A DNA stretch of 64,000 bases from Escherichia phage fp01. The stretch lies in the sequence record NC_048731.1. One strand, written 5' to 3'. Every line of letters starts with the position of its first letter. The stretch's first letter is position 1. The translations under genes and the position numbers were made by a program. Below, piece after piece: positions 3,272 through 29,591 of the stretch. The notes under the pieces were generated by a model. That model saw only the letters and a program-made list of their open reading frames with translations, made no database searches and had not been told where the DNA came from.

Positions 3272-6061
3272 GTGTTCTCAATCCTACAAGGTCATGCAGG
3301 ATTTCATCGCGATTTAGCCACTGGCATTTGGCGAGAAGTTAAAGCAGAAGACTATCTTTTTGCTAAAAGATTTTCCTCAAAGCATCCTGAAGGTAAACCA
3401 GCTTCAATGCCCTTCAAGTTTGATGTAATTGATGAAATTGATCCTCAAACCCTAGTAGAAATGCTCCCCCTTATGAGACGTTTAACGTCTGACCCTCATA
3501 TCGTTGCGGTACGAGGACGATGTCTTGCACCCAAAAATAATGTGCGACGTAAGAAGGGCAACTTTAATGTATCTAACCCAAGTCATATAATTGCAATGGA
3601 CGTGGATGGTATTGTAGATACAGGTGGTTGTAACAAGTTTGATCTTGTTGGCATGGCTCGACATATTATTAGGATGTTAAATAGTATTAGTGAGGATATG
3701 TTTCCTCTTGATGCAGGGTTTATTGCTCATGCATCGTCTTCGGCTGGGCTAAAACCAGGTATCCGAATGCACTTAATACTAGAATCTAATGTTAAAGTAA
3801 CTCAGGGTCAAATCAAATTCTTATTTACATCTATCAACGAAAGTAGTAGACAAAAGTATGGCTTTGATATTGCCGACTTAGCTTATTACTCTTCCGTACA
3901 GCTCCATTATTTTGCAGATCCGTTGTTTACCGATGGTATAGTAGATCCGTTTAAAGCGGAGGGTGCTTCACGTCTGGTATTTGTTAAGGGTTCTAAAGTA
4001 AATTTACCCAATAATCTGGTTGACTATGAAACAACTAGAGGTGAGTTTAAAGAAGAGTTCTACTCTTTACTCGACCAAATTAAGGGTAAAAAAGCTGCCT
4101 CTGATAAAGTAGAAGAAACTATCAGCGAACTAGAAGAAGCTGAGGATGGAGTGTATCTACGTATTATTCCTAAACTCTATCACAGGGCTTTGGAGGATGG
4201 TGTTGATTTTGCATGGTTAGAAAAAGAAATCCGTCCAGCCTTATCAGAATATATTGCAACTAAAGATAATAGTCGTAATATTCAAGACTACTTTAATAAT
4301 GGTCGTAAACAGGCTCTAAAAGCGTTTGTTAATAATTCTAAACGTGATATACCGGATGTTTTAAAAGGTATTCCACTTAAAAAGCTAGAAACTAACTCTT
4401 TAGAGACTGATAACTTCTTGAAATTAAATACTGTACCACCAGAAGGTTATATGACTTTTGTAAAAGCAAGTTTAGGTACAGGTAAAACTACAGCGGTTGT
4501 GCGTTGGTTAGATTCAGGAGTTATTAAAGGTAATTTCTTAGCAATTACCAATACTCGAGCACTGGTATCTTCAAATGCTAAGAAATTTAGTGCAGGACAA
4601 TATGATAAGTCTGTAGATATGCTTAATTTTAAGCGTGGTGCTATTGACCGTATGTCCACAACTATTCACTCTTTGCATAAGTTCAAGAGTTTTATTGGTC
4701 AAATCGATGCAATCTTTATCGATGAATGTGATGCTGTAATGAATGACCTATTGTTCGCCCCTGTTGTTAAACAACGTCGTGAATGTATTCAGGTTCTTCG
4801 GGATATTCTTGCAACTGCAAAAATCATTATATTATCTGATGGTGATATTAGTGCAGAAACAATTGAAGCATATGGTTCTTTGATTGAGTTTGATAAACCG
4901 GTTGCATTTTATAATCATCACCGTAAAATGCTGTCAAAAGCTCATGCTTACGAGTTCCCTGACGAATCCAGTATTTGGGTTGCACTTCAGACTTCTCTAG
5001 AGATGGGTGAGAAATCTATTCTGGTATCTGACTGTGGGCCGGATGAACTGAATGAGAAGGGCATGGCGTTGCGTCGTAATACGGGTGCATTAGTTAAGGA
5101 AATCCACTCAAACTCTACGTCTGATGTAGATATTAGACGTATTCTGGATTACACAACTAATGAGCTAATTGACCAACAAATTGATTGCTTATTATGTAGT
5201 CCATCCGTAACGAGTGGTGTTGACTTTAACTATTTTGATAACGTATTCGTTATCACTAGAACTAGTAACCAAGCGCCAAACATGCGTTTCCAAGCAATCA
5301 GGCGCGACCGTGGTGCTCAGAACATTTATTATTTTATTGATAAATCTACGAGTGGATTCTCCGCAGGTTCTGAGCAATATAACATTGATGAAGGTTGGCT
5401 GGAGTTAGCACAGCAATTATACGCACGTCGAAGAGAGCTGGAATCTAGGAACTATACTAGTACTTTACGTTATTATTTGCTTGATCAAGGTGCAACTATT
5501 GATATTTTCAGTGAAAGCTGGGGAACTATCGAAGGTGCAGGAAAAGAGTATACGGAAGAGCGAATCAAAGCTATATTGTATTCAACTCCTGATTATTGTG
5601 CTCCACGTCATGCAGATGCGTATGAAGCTAAACTACTTCTTGTTCGCTATTATCATCTTGAATCTATTAAAGATGTAACAGTTGAGCATGTTGAACAATA
5701 TATCAAGGATAAACCGAATGATCGAGCAGCATTCTTCCATAAAATGCACGAGATGTTCTGGGAAGATATTAAGAAGTGTTCAAATGTCACTATCAAACCA
5801 TTCATAGAAGCTCTGAAAGGTAAGAAGAAAGATTTCTTCCTTAAAACAGGTCAGAGTGCTAACCCAAAATATGCCAGAATGTATCTTGGTATGATGGGTA
5901 TTGGTAAGGATATGAACACGGAGAATATTGTAGACTGGTACAGAACTTATTGTAAAATCGAGTGTATGCCAATCCCGTATAAGTTTATGACTGATGAGGA
6001 GAAACATATGCATGATGAAGCAATGGCAGAGCTAGGTGCTAGAAATGACAGTGAAGAATAA
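3272..6061 (+). CDS. large P-loop NTPase, possible replication-initiation or origin-binding helicase-like protein
   Basis: Walker A SLGTGKTT and Walker B IFIDECD; frame open from 3074 but probable start is in-frame GTG at 3272 behind RBS AGGAG; N-terminal extension looks non-coding. Confidence 0.5.
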   Translation: MFSILQGHAGFHRDLATGIWREVKAEDYLFAKRFSSKHPEGKPASMPFKFDVIDEIDPQTLVEMLPLMRRLTSDPHIVAVRGRCLAPKNNVRRKKGNFNVSNPSHIIAMDVDGIVDTGGCNKFDLVGMARHIIRMLNSISEDMFPLDAGFIAHASSSAGLKPGIRMHLILESNVKVTQGQIKFLFTSINESSRQKYGFDIADLAYYSSVQLHYFADPLFTDGIVDPFKAEGASRLVFVKGSKVNLPNNLVDYETTRGEFKEEFYSLLDQIKGKKAASDKVEETISELEEAEDGVYLRIIPKLYHRALEDGVDFAWLEKEIRPALSEYIATKDNSRNIQDYFNNGRKQALKAFVNNSKRDIPDVLKGIPLKKLETNSLETDNFLKLNTVPPEGYMTFVKASLGTGKTTAVVRWLDSGVIKGNFLAITNTRALVSSNAKKFSAGQYDKSVDMLNFKRGAIDRMSTTIHSLHKFKSFIGQIDAIFIDECDAVMNDLLFAPVVKQRRECIQVLRDILATAKIIILSDGDISAETIEAYGSLIEFDKPVAFYNHHRKMLSKAHAYEFPDESSIWVALQTSLEMGEKSILVSDCGPDELNEKGMALRRNTGALVKEIHSNSTSDVDIRRILDYTTNELIDQQIDCLLCSPSVTSGVDFNYFDNVFVITRTSNQAPNMRFQAIRRDRGAQNIYYFIDKSTSGFSAGSEQYNIDEGWLELAQQLYARRRELESRNYTSTLRYYLLDQGATIDIFSESWGTIEGAGKEYTEERIKAILYSTPDYCAPRHADAYEAKLLLVRYYHLESIKDVTVEHVEQYIKDKPNDRAAFFHKMHEMFWEDIKKCSNVTIKPFIEALKGKKKDFFLKTGQSANPKYARMYLGMMGIGKDMNTENIVDWYRTYCKIECMPIPYKFMTDEEKHMHDEAMAELGARNDSEE

Positions 6062-24719: not shown

Positions 24720-24741
24720 TCTACATATCAAATAAATAATA

Positions 24742-24780
24742 AACCCCAGAGGGATATCCCTCTGGGGTTTTCTTTTATTG
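24742..24780. terminator. bidirectional terminator between convergent early and late blocks
   Basis: aaccccagaggg-atat-ccctctggggtt flanked by A-rich tract on one side and T-rich on the other. Confidence 0.6.
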
Positions 24781-26904
24781 AGGTACTATCTGTACCTTTA
24801 ATTGCTTGAGTTCTTCTTCTAAGTCTTCAATCCTTTTAATAAGATCTTGAACAACATGCATAGTATCAAGAAGCATTGGAGTTGTATCAAGTTCTTTTTG
24901 TTCCTGTTCTGCCCCATTGTTATCATAGAATTTTCTAGTTTTAACATAAAGCGGTTCTATAACTTCTGTTTCCTGAGCGATAACACCTCGTCTTATACGT
25001 TGAAGATTATCGTTATTATATATGAATGTCACAAAGTTTAGATTTTTGATGTTTTCTAAAGCTTTTTCAACAGTTGTATTTTCTATAGAATGTTTAAGGC
25101 GCCTATCTGAAGTTGCATTCTTTTGTAAAGTGTATGTTTCTTCTGATCCTGGTTGCCATTTGTGGAAAAAAATATCGGAATTTAATGGTTGAATACCGAC
25201 ACGAACTCCATAAGCGTTATTAGCATCGCCAGCAATATGCCATACGGATTGTGCAAAAGATGTTCCGTTGTGATGAATCATCCCCCAGTGACACGAAGTC
25301 TTATAACCACCTTGACTAGATTGGGCACCACTAAGAAGACTATTAAAAGCGTAATTTGCTCCAATAGCCTGGTCTTCCGCGCTAAATGTACCTTTAGTAA
25401 AACCTGTTTCACTCCAAGCCATCATAGTCCCATATCTTGCTCTATATCGATCGCTACTCAGCGTACCTGTGTCATCAAAGGCAAGGTCTTTTGTCACCCC
25501 TTTTGTCTTGTTGTATACAGACAGAATCGCATAATAAAGGCCATCCATGTATGCATCGCATCGCAATCCTGCATCCGCTTCAACAACGGTGCCGATTTTG
25601 TATTGGGCCTTTACCTGTCCTGACAATGCCTTTACGCCAGAGCCTGGGCGGACAGCATCAGCATTCATTACACTCCAAGACGTATTCGCGGCAACAAAGC
25701 CACCAGAGGCACGAATCACCCAAACGCCGACAAAGTTGCGCGGAACGATTTCTGCTGCTGAACGACCATAAACAGGACTGCAGCGAGAAGCGTCAAAGTT
25801 GGTTTGTATGTACCTTGAACCAGAGCCAACCGCAGCAGGAGCGTCCCCCGAAGTTATCGACTGAAAAGCACCGTTAGTTGCCACTTGGCTTGCTAAAGAA
25901 GCCAATGTCACCATTGTGTGCGGCGCTGCGTAAGTTATATTTGGAGCGCCTGATTCAGACACAACCCCGTTGGACGATGAATTCCCGCCGTCACCCCTGC
26001 CAAATAAGGCCTGTATGGAACCAGTTTGAACACCGTTCCTGTCAGGCACTCGAAACGTTGTTGTTCCGTTACCCAAAGAATATTTACCACGCTTTGATGC
26101 GTCAGCAAGCCATTCCGCATCTGAAATCGGCGTAAGCATTTGCGCATATGCCCAAAGCTCAGGCCAGTCAGCCCTGTTAAGAAGCTGCCCATCAGAAACC
26201 ACCTCATACGGTTGAATATACGCACGGCTATCTCGAAGATGGAAATCACCGACACCGTAGTTCATCACGCCATTCATTGTGGGTCCTACTGTGCCAGTAT
26301 TAATTTTGTTCTCCACCCAACGCTTAGTTACAGCATCATAATCATTAACGGGGTCTCCCGCAAGGGGGGTAGATCCAATAGGACGAACATTTAACCACGC
26401 AGCTGCGCGATCTGCTAAATCTGATAAATTATTTTCAGTCAATAGGCTTTCGTCTTTTGTTGGCACATTATAACTTTGTCTAAAAGCTTCTTTTGATACT
26501 ACTCCAGTACCCCCTTGTTCTATAGAAAGTGCAGTGGTTAAACCTGTTAAAGATTTAATAGTTGAGTTGGCACCATCCATGTCTATACTAGCAAATCTTG
26601 ACCATGCAGTCCATGAACTGTAAAAAGATCTACTATATATCTCATTACTATTATAAGGTAAGTAAATTTGAGTACAAGAAGTTGCTAAATTGCTTGCATT
26701 ATTTTTTAAAACTAGTAATGTACCTGCAGCCGCAACAGGATAGTTAAGAGAAGTAGGAGAGTTAGCATTTTCAGATTGCCAATACTTTCCATACACACTC
26801 CCATCAAGTGTATTTAAATTTGTTCCTGTAGTAATTAAACCATATACAGGTAAAGCGGCTACATCAGTAGCCTTTAAGTTAATTTTATCAATTCTAAGAG
26901 CCAT
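24775..26904 (-). CDS. tail fibre distal subunit (LtfB-like) with C-terminal intramolecular chaperone domain
   Basis: RBS AAGGAG; C-terminal SDRRLKHSIE...coiled-coil matches the self-cleaving S74-type chaperone domain of phage fibres; GC-rich internal segment. Confidence 0.7.
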   Translation of the reverse strand: MALRIDKINLKATDVAALPVYGLITTGTNLNTLDGSVYGKYWQSENANSPTSLNYPVAAAGTLLVLKNNASNLATSCTQIYLPYNSNEIYSRSFYSSWTAWSRFASIDMDGANSTIKSLTGLTTALSIEQGGTGVVSKEAFRQSYNVPTKDESLLTENNLSDLADRAAAWLNVRPIGSTPLAGDPVNDYDAVTKRWVENKINTGTVGPTMNGVMNYGVGDFHLRDSRAYIQPYEVVSDGQLLNRADWPELWAYAQMLTPISDAEWLADASKRGKYSLGNGTTTFRVPDRNGVQTGSIQALFGRGDGGNSSSNGVVSESGAPNITYAAPHTMVTLASLASQVATNGAFQSITSGDAPAAVGSGSRYIQTNFDASRCSPVYGRSAAEIVPRNFVGVWVIRASGGFVAANTSWSVMNADAVRPGSGVKALSGQVKAQYKIGTVVEADAGLRCDAYMDGLYYAILSVYNKTKGVTKDLAFDDTGTLSSDRYRARYGTMMAWSETGFTKGTFSAEDQAIGANYAFNSLLSGAQSSQGGYKTSCHWGMIHHNGTSFAQSVWHIAGDANNAYGVRVGIQPLNSDIFFHKWQPGSEETYTLQKNATSDRRLKHSIENTTVEKALENIKNLNFVTFIYNNDNLQRIRRGVIAQETEVIEPLYVKTRKFYDNNGAEQEQKELDTTPMLLDTMHVVQDLIKRIEDLEEELKQLKVQIVPQ

Positions 26905-26913
26905 TTTAACTCC

Positions 26914-27219
26914 TTATGCCCACATGCGAACAGGTGTTTCTGGGTTTACTATAAATTTATCTAGTATAGAGAGATCAAAATCATCAATATTCATAATACG
27001 CAGATTAACGTGATATCCTTCTTGCACTACATACTCAATATCTTCTATATTTTGATACTCTGTTAAGGGTTTTGCAGGCTGACTGATAATACCGATAAAA
27101 TCAATACTGACATTTTCACAATATAAACTACCTGTTTCTTCATCTAAACTAAAGCCAAATTTTATCAAATTAATTTTCATTTCATCAGCATTAGTAAATT
27201 TTAGATATAAATCTTTCAT
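26914..27219 (-). CDS. hypothetical protein between the two tail-fibre genes
   Basis: 101-aa acidic ORF with RBS AAGGA. Confidence 0.35.
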   Translation of the reverse strand: MKDLYLKFTNADEMKINLIKFGFSLDEETGSLYCENVSIDFIGIISQPAKPLTEYQNIEDIEYVVQEGYHVNLRIMNIDDFDLSILDKFIVNPETPVRMWA

Positions 27220-27265
27220 TATAGAATCCTTAATTTTATGGGAACATTATATAATATTCCTGTAC

Positions 27266-29169
27266 TTACCGTAAGCCATTAATTTGATCATTATTTAAAG
27301 CCCTATACCATACTCGGAAATTCTTAATATGATATACAAATTTAGAAGGGGTAGGAGATGGTGATGCACCTAACCTAGACGGAATACCTGTCAAACTCAC
27401 GGGAGTACTAGTAGATTTAGCAGTTTTACCATTAAAGAAATTACTAATCTCATTCCCTGTTATTTTTTGAGCATAGGTCATAGGAGGTAGACTTTCTATA
27501 TCTGGAATAGCTAAGGTTGGCCCTGTACTAGATCTATATGTTCTTATAGTGGCATTATCAGCGCTATCACAGCGGCAGATAATGTCATACTTAGAACCTC
27601 TTACTTGCATAACTTCTACATAACTAGTATAAGGTCGTACTTTACAATTAAATTCAAAAGATACTGTGCGCTCAAAGTAGTCCGCCAGGGTTCTATAGCC
27701 GGCATTATCTGGTATACACCACCATTCATCTGCTGTTCTAGTAGTGGTGGTATCAGTGCTATTACGGATGTAAGAAGTTGGAGCTATGCCTTCCTCAACC
27801 TGTATACCCCAAATGTAGAAACCAGAAACACCATCCCCCTGGTAGACAGTAGTATTGGTATTTTTAGCCATCTGGAGTCTAAATATAGTGCTTCGACTTT
27901 CAGTGGCTGCAAAAGAAACCCAAATTCTATATATACCTCCAGTTAATCTCTCATACCCCCCTCTAATATTACTAGCAGAACCACTTGTAGCAACAGTTTC
28001 ATTTTTAATATCAAAAAACATACCAACAGTTGTACCGGAAGCTACACGTAGATATACTAAACGGTTAGCGGTATCATCTTTAACATAAGCAGAATAGCAA
28101 TAAAAAGTATCAGCAGTCAAAGATATCCATTTATCGTTGCAGTAATGCTCGCCGTCATTGGTATTCTCGGTAAACTTAGTCATCAACATTTCGCCAGTCG
28201 GGCACGCCGAAGCATTAGGAGTTGTAATAACTAGACTACCTCCAGTAATTGCTTCTGAATTAGTATATAAATTAGTGCACTGAGACTCCATTAATAAACC
28301 TTGCTTTTCAAATCTAGGTTCATTAATATCTGCAAAACACATTTTACCACTTTTATCTATATAACTGGCGGTAGTTGAGCGAGTAAAATTTGCAGATTTT
28401 GTTGGCAATTCCAGAGTTACATCATTAATTGTTGCTAAATCGTAGGGGGCCATACCAGATAATAATCTCATATCATCAGTTAAAGGTACCCAAACATCCG
28501 GATAAGGGACAGGTTCATACATAATAATACTAGCAGCAGAAGCAGCGGCGGCAGCTTCAGAAGCTTTAGCATTAATTTCAGAAGCTTTAGCGTTAGTCTC
28601 TGAAGCTTTAGCATTAGTCTCAGAAGNNNNNNNNNNNNNNNNNNNNNNNNNNNNNNNNNNNNNNNNNTTTTACTTGCTAATGCATTAGTTTCGCTAGTAG
28701 CAGCATTAGTTTCCGAGGTTTTAGCTTTGGTTTCACTAGATTTTGCATTAGTTTCTGATGCTTTTGCATTAGTCTCGGATGTTTTAGCCTTAGTTTCACT
28801 AGCTTTCGCATTAGTCTCAGATACTTTAGCTGCTGCGGCTGATGCTGCAGATCTATCCGCTGATGCAGCAGATTGAGTAGCAGATGTAGCGGACTGAGTG
28901 GCAGAGGCTTCAGAAGCTCCAGCAGAAATAGCAGCTTCCTGTTCAGAATCCTTAGCATTAAGTTCTGAAGTCTTAGCAGCTATCTCAGAAGCTTTTGCAG
29001 CTGCAGCAGATTTAGCCGTAGCCTCAATAGAGGATACTAATTCACTTGCAGTAATAGAGCTAATAGAATTACCTAGAGTTACAGTATATCTAGGAAATTT
29101 ACTAGCAGTAGCTTTAGTATCATCAATATTTAATATCTGTTGTACAATAATCTTAGTAGTTACTGCCAT
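27266..29169 (-). CDS. L-shaped tail fibre proximal subunit (pb1 N-terminal/LtfA-like), interrupted by an assembly gap
   Basis: The 418-aa and 229-aa track ORFs are the same reading frame on either side of the N-run; SETNAKA-type repeats continue in frame; N-terminus matches the T5 fibre N-terminus as recalled. Confidence 0.6.
28540..28860 (-). repeat. in-frame tandem 21-nt coding repeats (heptapeptide A-K-A/T-S-E-T-N array)
   Basis: Repeated gcattagtctc(a/t)ga(a/t)gctttagc units on both sides of the gap. Confidence 0.8.
28627..28667. other. assembly gap (41 N)
   Basis: Run of n characters inside a tandem coding repeat. Confidence 0.95.
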
Positions 29170-29591
29170 TATTTAGTTACCCCATCACTGATAAATACTT
29201 TACCCTCCATTATGCGAAAGGAGCTAATTGCAGATCCTACAACATCTCTAGTCATGATTATATCATAGTATCCTGCTAATCGCTGACGGGGGTTATACTT
29301 ATCTCTATCTTTAGATGCTTTAGCTCCTAGATTTTCCACGGATTCTACTGGCAAACTTATAGCCACAGCCCCCTGGGCAGCATCAATAATATTAGTAGTA
29401 AAGGATGCTAGGGTTTCTGCGTTCTCTTCTAGACTACTTTTTATAACACCTCTTAGAGAATACCCCGTTAAATTAACAGGGGTATTTGTAGGTGGGTAAG
29501 TACTATCATCAACATCTAAGAACTGCATCATTAAACCATATGGTACTTTCTCATCTATTACTAAGTCTATAACTCTATTTTCAGTACTCAT
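29169..29591 (-). CDS. tail collar protein (p132-like)
   Basis: 140 aa, directly downstream of baseplate genes and upstream of the fibre gene. Confidence 0.45.

Follow-up and report, generated by a model that had tools for sequence, protein, structure and literature searches.

A small gene strictly linked to Rcc01080-like fibre tips in the lateral tail-fibre operon of a T5-like phage, and its possible role as a partner of the tip

The window considered here is a stretch of 64,000 nucleotides (nt) of Escherichia phage fp01 (NC_048731.1), a T5-like phage (Tequintavirus), and it includes the operon for the lateral (L-shaped) tail fibres (LTF), the genes of which all lie on the minus strand. Between the genes for two fibre proteins that resemble LtfA and LtfB of other T5-like phages there is a small open reading frame (ORF) for an acidic protein of 101 amino acids (aa), and our comparisons show that homologues of this small gene are strictly syntenic with fibre tips of the Rcc01080-like type, which in the window is the distal part of LtfA, across siphophages, myophages and podophages, both virulent and temperate. 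We put at roughly one half the probability that the small protein assists the LtfA tip as an accessory partner, i.e., as a chaperone for it and possibly also as a docking cap. The locus itself is nothing new: two-protein lateral fibres of T5-like phages were described between 2012 and 2016, and near-identical cassettes are present in GenBank. The novelty lies in the comparison made for the small gene, and we regard its outcome as a modest, testable lead. The features of the window on which this result depends are the following.

27266..29169, minus strand: ltfA-like first fibre gene (anchor, Ala/Ser/Thr-rich repeats and distal lectin-like module; interrupted by a run of N)
27266..28522, minus strand: LtfA distal module, 418 aa as listed, with a "GTA_spike_fiber" domain and a LamG/ConA-like end
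26914..27219, minus strand: small acidic ORF, 101 aa (phrog_18574/phrog_1361)
24775..26904, minus strand: ltfB-like second fibre gene, 709 aa (phrog_6921)
26842..26904, minus strand: first ~21 codons of LtfB (MALRIDKINLKATDVAAL), a conserved N-terminal peptide and putative docking element

Genomic context of the small gene

The distal module of LtfA matches NCBIfam NF048003 ("GTA_spike_fiber") with 112 bits (cut-off 36) over residues 77-264 and Rcc01080 of RcGTA (PDB 6TB9_F3) with an E value of 9.8e-19 over residues 43-265, and at the C-terminal end of the protein there is a Laminin_G_3 score of 21.4 bits, which lies under the cut-off. The comparison of contexts covers ~95 loci, 80 of them from IMG/VR, and in every context examined the gene directly upstream of the small ORF encodes a fibre with such an Rcc01080-like tip, often with an ATGA overlap between the two genes. 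Upstream proteins tested with profile hidden Markov models (HMMs) were those of the window, AKFV33, a P2-like prophage of Superficieibacter, the lambdoid phage mEp460, PeterMerian (Drexlerviridae), SU10-like podophages and environmental phages; NF048003 scored above cut-off in 12 of these 13 proteins and weakly (27 bits) in the thirteenth. An upstream ORF was recovered for all but two of the 80 IMG/VR loci, and every one of the 78 matches the LtfA tip of the window in phmmer searches. No phmmer match to the same tip was obtained with T5 Ltf, LtfA of DT57C, g125 of phiR2-01 or LtfB of the window itself.

The downstream side of the small ORF varies, and the gene found there may encode a fibre with a Peptidase_S74 (S74) domain, a Phage_tail_C_2 fibre, a Gp53-like_C fibre accompanied by a Caudo_TAP protein, a Mu GpP-like baseplate protein or a small membrane protein, or it may be a lysis gene or a gene on the opposite strand. 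The small ORF is also retained with no second fibre at all in mEp460, in the loci L007, L008 and L100 and in ten loci of the Mu GpP type. Since the gene persists in such loci and its downstream neighbours vary, its constant partner is the tip encoded upstream.

In three of these loci, namely mEp460 (4792-5079), L008 (6334-6513) and L100 (5164-5385), the small ORF is followed by a gene for a short hydrophobic protein, membrane-like by eye, that may be a holin-like or an exclusion protein.

The small protein and its family

The small protein matches two PHROGs families, phrog_18574 (E 2.8e-16) and phrog_1361 (E 1e-13), both of them listed as of unknown function, and it has no significant match in Pfam, NCBIfam or the sequences of the PDB; a set of 62 members of its family likewise gave no Pfam match, PF02413 included. 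An exhaustive profile search of clusters formed at 50% identity recovered 170 representatives, and a second profile search of clusters formed at 90% recovered 1215 clusters. Nearly all of the members are 80-110 aa long and labelled hypothetical. The longer ones contain loop insertions of 50-70 residues in the variable central loops, and no fusion of the domain to a fibre (the "Rosetta-stone" type of evidence) occurs among the best 150 of the 170 representatives. Conserved in the family are the motifs G[YW]HVN.R and P..TP.RVWA, the second of which lies at the extreme C-terminus. The core of the protein and its C-terminal tail remain conserved across coliphages, a Synechococcus myophage and phages of environmental metagenomes. 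At closer range, the small ORF of the window is 98-99% identical to those of IME178 and HMD-P3 but 42% identical to that of AZ21, despite identical flanks.

An AlphaFold2 model computed from an alignment of 108 sequences has a compact and confident alpha/beta core (pLDDT 87.6), whereas an earlier model from 6 sequences was poor (pLDDT 60). The C-terminal tail, with its invariant residues P96, R98 and W100, is modelled with low confidence, and a tail that is invariant and yet of low confidence in a model presents a pattern typical of partner-binding peptides. Neither a solved structure nor a viral predicted structure of known function was found to resemble the predicted fold. We also considered the small ORF as a possible member of Caudo_TAP and rejected this identity, with a probability of 0.2% from hhalign against g124 of phiR2-01 and PF02413 unmatched.

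In the Aeromonas phage AhP_Mru1 (PV190393.1, Demerecviridae) the fibre region is broken up in the annotation into many coding sequences (CDS) of 30-100 aa, a sign that the sequence as deposited may contain numerous frameshift errors; the homologue of the small ORF in this phage is intact.

N-terminal peptides of the following fibres and a shared exchange block

The fibres that follow the small ORF often begin with a short conserved peptide of ~20 residues, whatever their distal domain may be. One type of peptide, M[AV]xRxD...L, is seen in LtfB of the window (MALRIDKINLKATDVAAL), in downstream fibres of prophage-like loci and in the P2-like prophage, and 66 of the 77 downstream ORFs from IMG/VR start with M[AV]xRxD. 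Another type, M.T.T.IP.DITKLK, goes with a subfamily of small ORFs of 88-92 aa that is represented in AKFV33, Bas32 and PeterMerian, and a third, ..PNQVP.NADLG..AF.D, is shared by Synechococcus phage S-WAM2 and phages from the environment. The LtfB proteins of DT57C and phiR2-01 share a different N-terminus, MSR.LMP.SGAMAPY, and such a small ORF is present in neither phage. There are also triads in which the second fibre is very short (95-332 aa) and lacks any other anchor domain.

Comparison of the window with AZ21, a mosaic relative, shows ~100% identity as far as position 28494 and again from 26841, and 35-77% in between, from the LtfA tip over the small gene to ~20 codons into LtfB. In the diverged block (~28493 to ~26842) the small ORF is flanked by the sequence for the LtfA tip on one side and by codons 1-21 of LtfB on the other and, to judge from this alignment, these three elements, the last of them coding for the N-terminal peptide of LtfB, have been exchanged as one unit in AZ21.

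Some of the proteins encoded after the small ORF are far below the ordinary length of a fibre. Those of L098 (5325-5612), L099 (5328-5615) and S-WAM2 (4336-4866) are 95-176 aa long and start with the fibre-type motif ..PNQVP.NADLG..AF.D. In PeterMerian (Bas05) the gene at 4792-5487, which encodes 231 aa, has been annotated as a "putative lateral tail fiber chaperone"; its product starts with the same docking-type peptide as orf135 of AKFV33 (MATVTVIPSDITKLK), and we read it, from its apparent make-up (the peptide, an apparent coiled coil and a chaperone-like C-terminus), as a very short second fibre and not as a chaperone.

Two fibres in one operon

Three further features concern the attachment and the maturation of the two fibres.

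29169..29591, minus strand: LtfC-like collar gene, 140 aa (PF23926, 50.4 bits; phrog_34807)
28668..29169, minus strand: N-terminal 167 aa of LtfA, tail-attachment region and first SETNAKA repeats
24958..25110, minus strand: Peptidase_S74 chaperone core of LtfB, residues 599-649 (PF13884, 46.8 bits; cut-off 22)

Residues 1-165 of LtfA align with residues 1-204 of T5 Ltf (51% identity, E 3e-33) and are the sole part of the protein that is homologous to T5; the phrog_24369 match of this N-terminus covers residues 2-165 of 1396. LtfA would be held on the tail through this T5-like N-terminus together with LtfC. The LtfC-like gene has the same position as ltfC of DT57C, its stop overlaps the start of ltfA by 1 nt, and its product matches phrog_34807, which is labelled "collar tail protein for L-shaped tail fibre attachment". 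No Peptidase_S74 domain was found in LtfA by the Pfam search. By analogy with Rcc01080 (GhsB), the lectin-like module at its distal end probably binds a surface polysaccharide.

LtfB (709 aa) has no significant BLASTP match to T5 Ltf (best E 0.67), although a local alignment brings its TSDRRLK motif together with TSDARLK of T5 Ltf, so that the conserved S-D cleavage motif is present. The protein shares 43% identity with LtfB of DT57C and 48% with the distal half of LtfA from that phage (over ~575-680 residues); the identity to DT57C LtfB extends over residues 111-703, and the N-terminal ~110 residues are unrelated. The match to chain d of PDB 8HQZ has an E value of 8e-149, and relative to IME178 the distal part of LtfB diverges past about residue 256. 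LtfB would be a second and independent fibre that brings a receptor-binding region of its own together with a predicted self-cleaving S74 chaperone.

Because LtfA has a distal lectin-like module of its own, the locus encodes two fibres and not two halves of one. In this respect our reading departs from an initial annotation of the window, made from the sequence by a model, in which the L-shaped fibre appeared to be split into two genes: only residues 1-165 of LtfA are T5-like, and LtfB has no significant similarity to T5 Ltf. Most of the anatomy that the initial annotation described is in agreement with what we find, including the positions of the ORFs of 709 and 101 aa, the end of the first fibre gene at 27266, the acidity of the small protein (pI 4.26, with 18 D+E against 8 K+R) and the presence in the 709-aa gene of both a self-cleaving chaperone domain (Peptidase_S74) and its own ribosome-binding site (RBS), AAGGAG, 5 nt before the ATG and overlapping the stop codon of the small ORF. 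The order of two fibre genes with a small ORF between them also stands, with the correction that the first fibre gene is interrupted in this record by a run of N, a point which that annotation had overlooked.

Relation to known lateral-fibre systems

At least four LTF layouts can be recognized among the T5-like phages, i.e., those of T5, DT57C and phiR2-01 and the present type. T5 Ltf (pb1) is, as the initial annotation had stated in giving it roughly 1400 aa, a single chain (1396 aa) and carries S74, whereas the window has two chains, of which the first, LtfA, has no S74 before its end at 27266. Common to both are an LtfC partner, repeats of the SETNAKA type and the ~165 residues at the N-terminus, but beyond the N-terminal region T5 Ltf is not homologous to the fibres of the window. 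The principle of a self-cleaving S74 chaperone is likewise shared, and in the window it sits on LtfB.

Two-component fibres, which the same annotation had attributed to some relatives, are indeed known from DT57C, where two adjacent fibre genes follow ltfC and LtfA has a T5-like N-terminus, as in the window. In DT57C, however, both fibres carry S74 and the gap of 38 nt between their genes contains no gene, whereas in the window LtfA lacks S74 and the 101-aa ORF is interposed; moreover, DT57C LtfA does not have the NF048003 tip of the window LtfA, and the N-terminus of DT57C LtfB (MSRPLMPKSGAMAPY) is unrelated to that of the window LtfB, so that the attachment of the second fibre is probably made differently in the two phages. 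The LTF of DT57C and DT571/2 is branched, with LtfB attached via LtfA and with two receptor specificities (Golomidova 2016, PMC4728585; Ayala 2023, PMC10713586). In phiR2-01 an LtfA-like protein without S74 (g125) is followed by the Caudo_TAP protein g124 and then by an LtfB with S74. The gene for g124 fills the exact slot between the LTF genes, and the small ORF of the window likewise follows a fibre that lacks S74. Proteins of the Caudo_TAP type (lambda Tfa, Mu U, P2 G and T4 gp38) are encoded directly after the fibre that they serve, as is the small ORF, but they have no sequence relation to it; the predicted fold of the small protein is unlike that of any solved chaperone, and it differs from Caudo_TAP also in that its C-terminal tail is its most conserved part.

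The closest counterparts are AKFV33, IME178, HMD-P3 and Bas32 (IrisVonRoten), in which the order is that of the window: ltfC, an LtfA without S74 and with an NF048003 tip (52.9 bits for orf137 of AKFV33), the small ORF, an S74 fibre and a convergent dUTPase gene. From sequence and gene order, the locus is of the AKFV33/IME178 layout, which occurs also in AZ21 and in many other T5-like phages in GenBank, and the DNA of the window as a whole is ~94-96% identical to known Tequintavirus genomes. AKFV33 and Bas32 represent the other subtype, with the 88-92-aa small ORF and the M.T.T.IP.DITKLK start of the second fibre. Relative to the phages of the AKFV33/IME178 type, ltfA of the window has fewer resolved repeats and a run of N. 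The paper on AKFV33 (2012) described a two-protein fibre (ltpA/ltpB) and detected ORF137 in virions by mass spectrometry, and it did not discuss ORF136; Michniewski 2019 mentions "two genes upstream of ltfB" in mar004NP2, and BASEL allows that LTFs may comprise one, two or more proteins.

The homologue of the LtfA distal module in RcGTA, GhsB (Rcc01080, PDB 6TB9), is located on the capsid and not on the tail, is 325 aa long and has no counterpart of the final ~150 residues of the LtfA module. Disruption of GhsB impairs adsorption of RcGTA (PMC5026251), and Westbye 2016, by its title, reports that RcGTA requires its head spikes in order to bind the capsule. No small partner gene next to that for GhsB is reported in the literature examined, the Rhodobacter genome itself having been outside the search.

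A proposed role for the small protein

We propose that the small protein serves the Rcc01080-like tip of LtfA as an intermolecular chaperone that would help the tip to fold or to trimerise, a proposal that is made because LtfA has no intramolecular chaperone. Its role would then be that of Caudo_TAP in phiR2-01 and of the S74 domain in DT57C LtfA, and the occupancy of the slot follows this pattern: LtfA of DT57C has S74 and no small gene, g125 of phiR2-01 has no S74 and is followed by Caudo_TAP, and LtfA of the window has no S74 and is followed by the small ORF. Binding would occur through the conserved C-terminal tail, and the small protein may be retained on the tip, at which LtfB would dock with its ~20 N-terminal residues and so give rise to a compound fibre for two receptors. 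The suggestion in the initial annotation that the intervening protein could be an assembly factor or an adaptor is plausible.

Several considerations weigh against this proposal. The 80 IMG/VR loci belong mostly to one clade, so that the counts given above are not counts of independent events. The joint exchange of the small ORF with the tip and the LtfB peptide is seen in a single mosaic pair (the window and AZ21), and its 3' breakpoint could simply mark the place where homology resumes. Rcc01080 of RcGTA adjoins capsule genes, according to the literature, and thus it probably works without a partner and the fold may not need one. We found no paper that mentions the small protein, and a chaperone and an adaptor are inseparable by sequence alone.

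It is possible, and we hold to it more tentatively, that the small protein has no folding role and is purely a structural adaptor, i.e., a knee-cap or connector that is retained in the virion at the LtfA tip and holds the N-terminal peptide of LtfB, much as gp35 is the knee-cap or connector of the T4 fibre. The co-occurrence of the N-terminal peptides with subfamilies of the small ORF, the single block, from the tip over the small ORF to codon 21 of LtfB, that is replaced relative to AZ21, the triads with second fibres of 95-332 aa that have no other anchor domain and the annotation of the Bas32 homologue as a "tail fiber protein" in BASEL would all be in keeping with such an adaptor. Yet the small ORF is kept in mEp460, L007, L008, L100 and the ten loci of the Mu GpP type, where no fibre follows, and in DT57C and phiR2-01 LtfB is attached without it; the protein is also absent from the four gel bands identified in AKFV33 virions, an analysis that would miss a protein of ~11 kDa. 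A role as an adhesin that sits on the end of LtfA and itself touches the receptor, for which gp38 of T2 and T6 is the analogue, strikes us as quite improbable. The position of the gene directly after that of a fibre, the variable central loops that tolerate insertions of 50-70 residues in some members and the drop to 42% identity between the window and AZ21 in spite of identical flanks would suit an adhesin, but a core and tail conserved from coliphages to a Synechococcus myophage and metagenome phages are not what is expected of a surface in contact with receptors, and LtfA already has a lectin-like domain homologous to the capsule-binding spike fibre of RcGTA. Less probable still, and to our minds very hard to sustain, is the idea that the small ORF is a moron or a regulatory gene with no relation to the fibres. 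It is true that the ORF has no recognizable domain and that fibre loci are hot spots of recombination that gather unrelated genes (in mEp460 the small ORF is followed by that for a small membrane protein); but morons do not keep such synteny, and here there is strict adjacency to one tip module, often with the ATGA overlap, in virulent and temperate phages of three morphotypes.

A broader version of the proposed partnership with the tip, which we put forward as a doubtful though conceivable extension, is that the small ORFs form a widespread and undescribed class of tip partners (at least 1215 clusters at 90%) that would cap tips of the Rcc01080/LamG type and serve as a universal socket for the short peptide at the N-terminus of a second fibre, so that siphophages, myophages and podophages could stack or branch interchangeable fibres by means of a cassette of tip, cap and peptide. 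The small gene, "hypothetical" almost everywhere, is among the most consistently placed neighbours of common lectin-like fibre tips, in phages of enterobacteria, Aeromonas and cyanobacteria and in those of environmental samples. If its product is a chaperone or a docking cap, the gene must travel with such receptor-binding modules when therapeutic phages or pyocin-like particles are re-targeted, and the transferable unit would extend from the start of the tip to about codon 21 of the next fibre.

The stop codon at 27266 and the interrupted repeats of ltfA

The ltfA gene terminates with TAA at 27268-27266. This stop is kept in IME178 and HMD-P3, and the C-terminus of LtfA aligns end to end with that of the homologous fibre of the P2-like prophage, from which we conclude that the stop is genuine. 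The contrary explanation, raised in the initial annotation, is that the stop is a sequencing error and that the region is in reality one continuous T5-like fibre ORF; the assembly is indeed imperfect nearby, as the N run in ltfA attests, but the same stop, a 101-aa ORF of 98-99% identity and a separate ltfB recur in the independent genomes IME178 and HMD-P3, homologous fibres end at the same place, LtfB and the distal part of T5 Ltf are not related, and ltfA, the small ORF (preceded by its own AAGGA) and ltfB each have an RBS. We have rejected this explanation, which is scarcely credible.

The gene is interrupted by a feature of a different kind.

28627..28667, no strand: 41 consecutive N within the array of 21-nt tandem repeats of ltfA

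This is the sole run of N in the window, and it is flanked by tandem repeats at 28557-28626 and 28682-28830 that consist of 21-nt units encoding SETNAKA-like heptads. The ltfA interval (29169-27266) is 1904 nt long, which is not a multiple of 3, and the frames on either side of the run differ by one base; for this reason the ORF listing gives ltfA as two pieces, of 229 and 418 aa, in different frames. The orthologue in IME178, the closest relative with an intact gene, has 729 aa and 286 nt more of repeats than the window. The run of N probably represents an assembly gap or a stretch of repeats that was masked or left unresolved, in a gene that is probably intact in reality.

It is a separate question, and one compatible with any reading of the small ORF, whether ltfA might truly be frameshifted or truncated in this phage, in which case its product would be reduced to a short N-terminal stub, with little or no use for the LtfA tip, the small protein and LtfB. 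The two halves are out of frame if exactly 41 bases replace the run of N, and laboratory-passaged T5-like phages are known to lose or rearrange LTF genes on rough hosts (the DT530 deletion). We consider a real lesion unlikely: the distal frame of 418 aa is fully open and ~95% identical to IME178, open frames restart directly past the run, runs of N normally denote unresolved repeats of unknown length, and HMD-P3 shows how readily this repeat region is misassembled.

In the HMD-P3 record (PQ462667.1), at ~2150-2260 of the locus and within ltfA, the fibre repeats contain an adapter-like sequence (GAAGAGCGTCGTGTAGGGAAAGAGTGT, GTGTAGATCTCGGTGGTCGCCGTATCATT) and NN. We take the insert GAAGAGCGTCGTGTAGGGAAAGAGTGT...GTGTAGATCTCGGTGGTCGCCGTATCATT for a dual-index adapter of the Illumina TruSeq type. 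This artefact of assembly sits at the position of the N run of the window, and ltfA of HMD-P3 is annotated as two overlapping CDS because of this insert and the NN.

Other features of the operon

The promoter scan of the window gave no result above that of shuffled controls, and the scan of the window for terminator-like sites found none on the minus strand between ltfA, the small ORF and ltfB. Beyond ltfB there is the following feature.

24741..24770, both strands: bidirectional hairpin (13 bp, 8 GC) resembling an intrinsic terminator, at the place where ltfB and the dUTPase gene converge

The predicted hairpin ends the fibre operon, and in the T5 record a bidirectional terminator is annotated at the equivalent place. 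At the other end of the fibre genes, the LtfC of the window is encoded by one intact ORF of 140 aa, while the T5 reference record shows two short ORFs (T5.135 and T5.136), a split that has been ascribed to a frameshift error in the T5 sequence (Ayala et al. 2023, PMC10713586).

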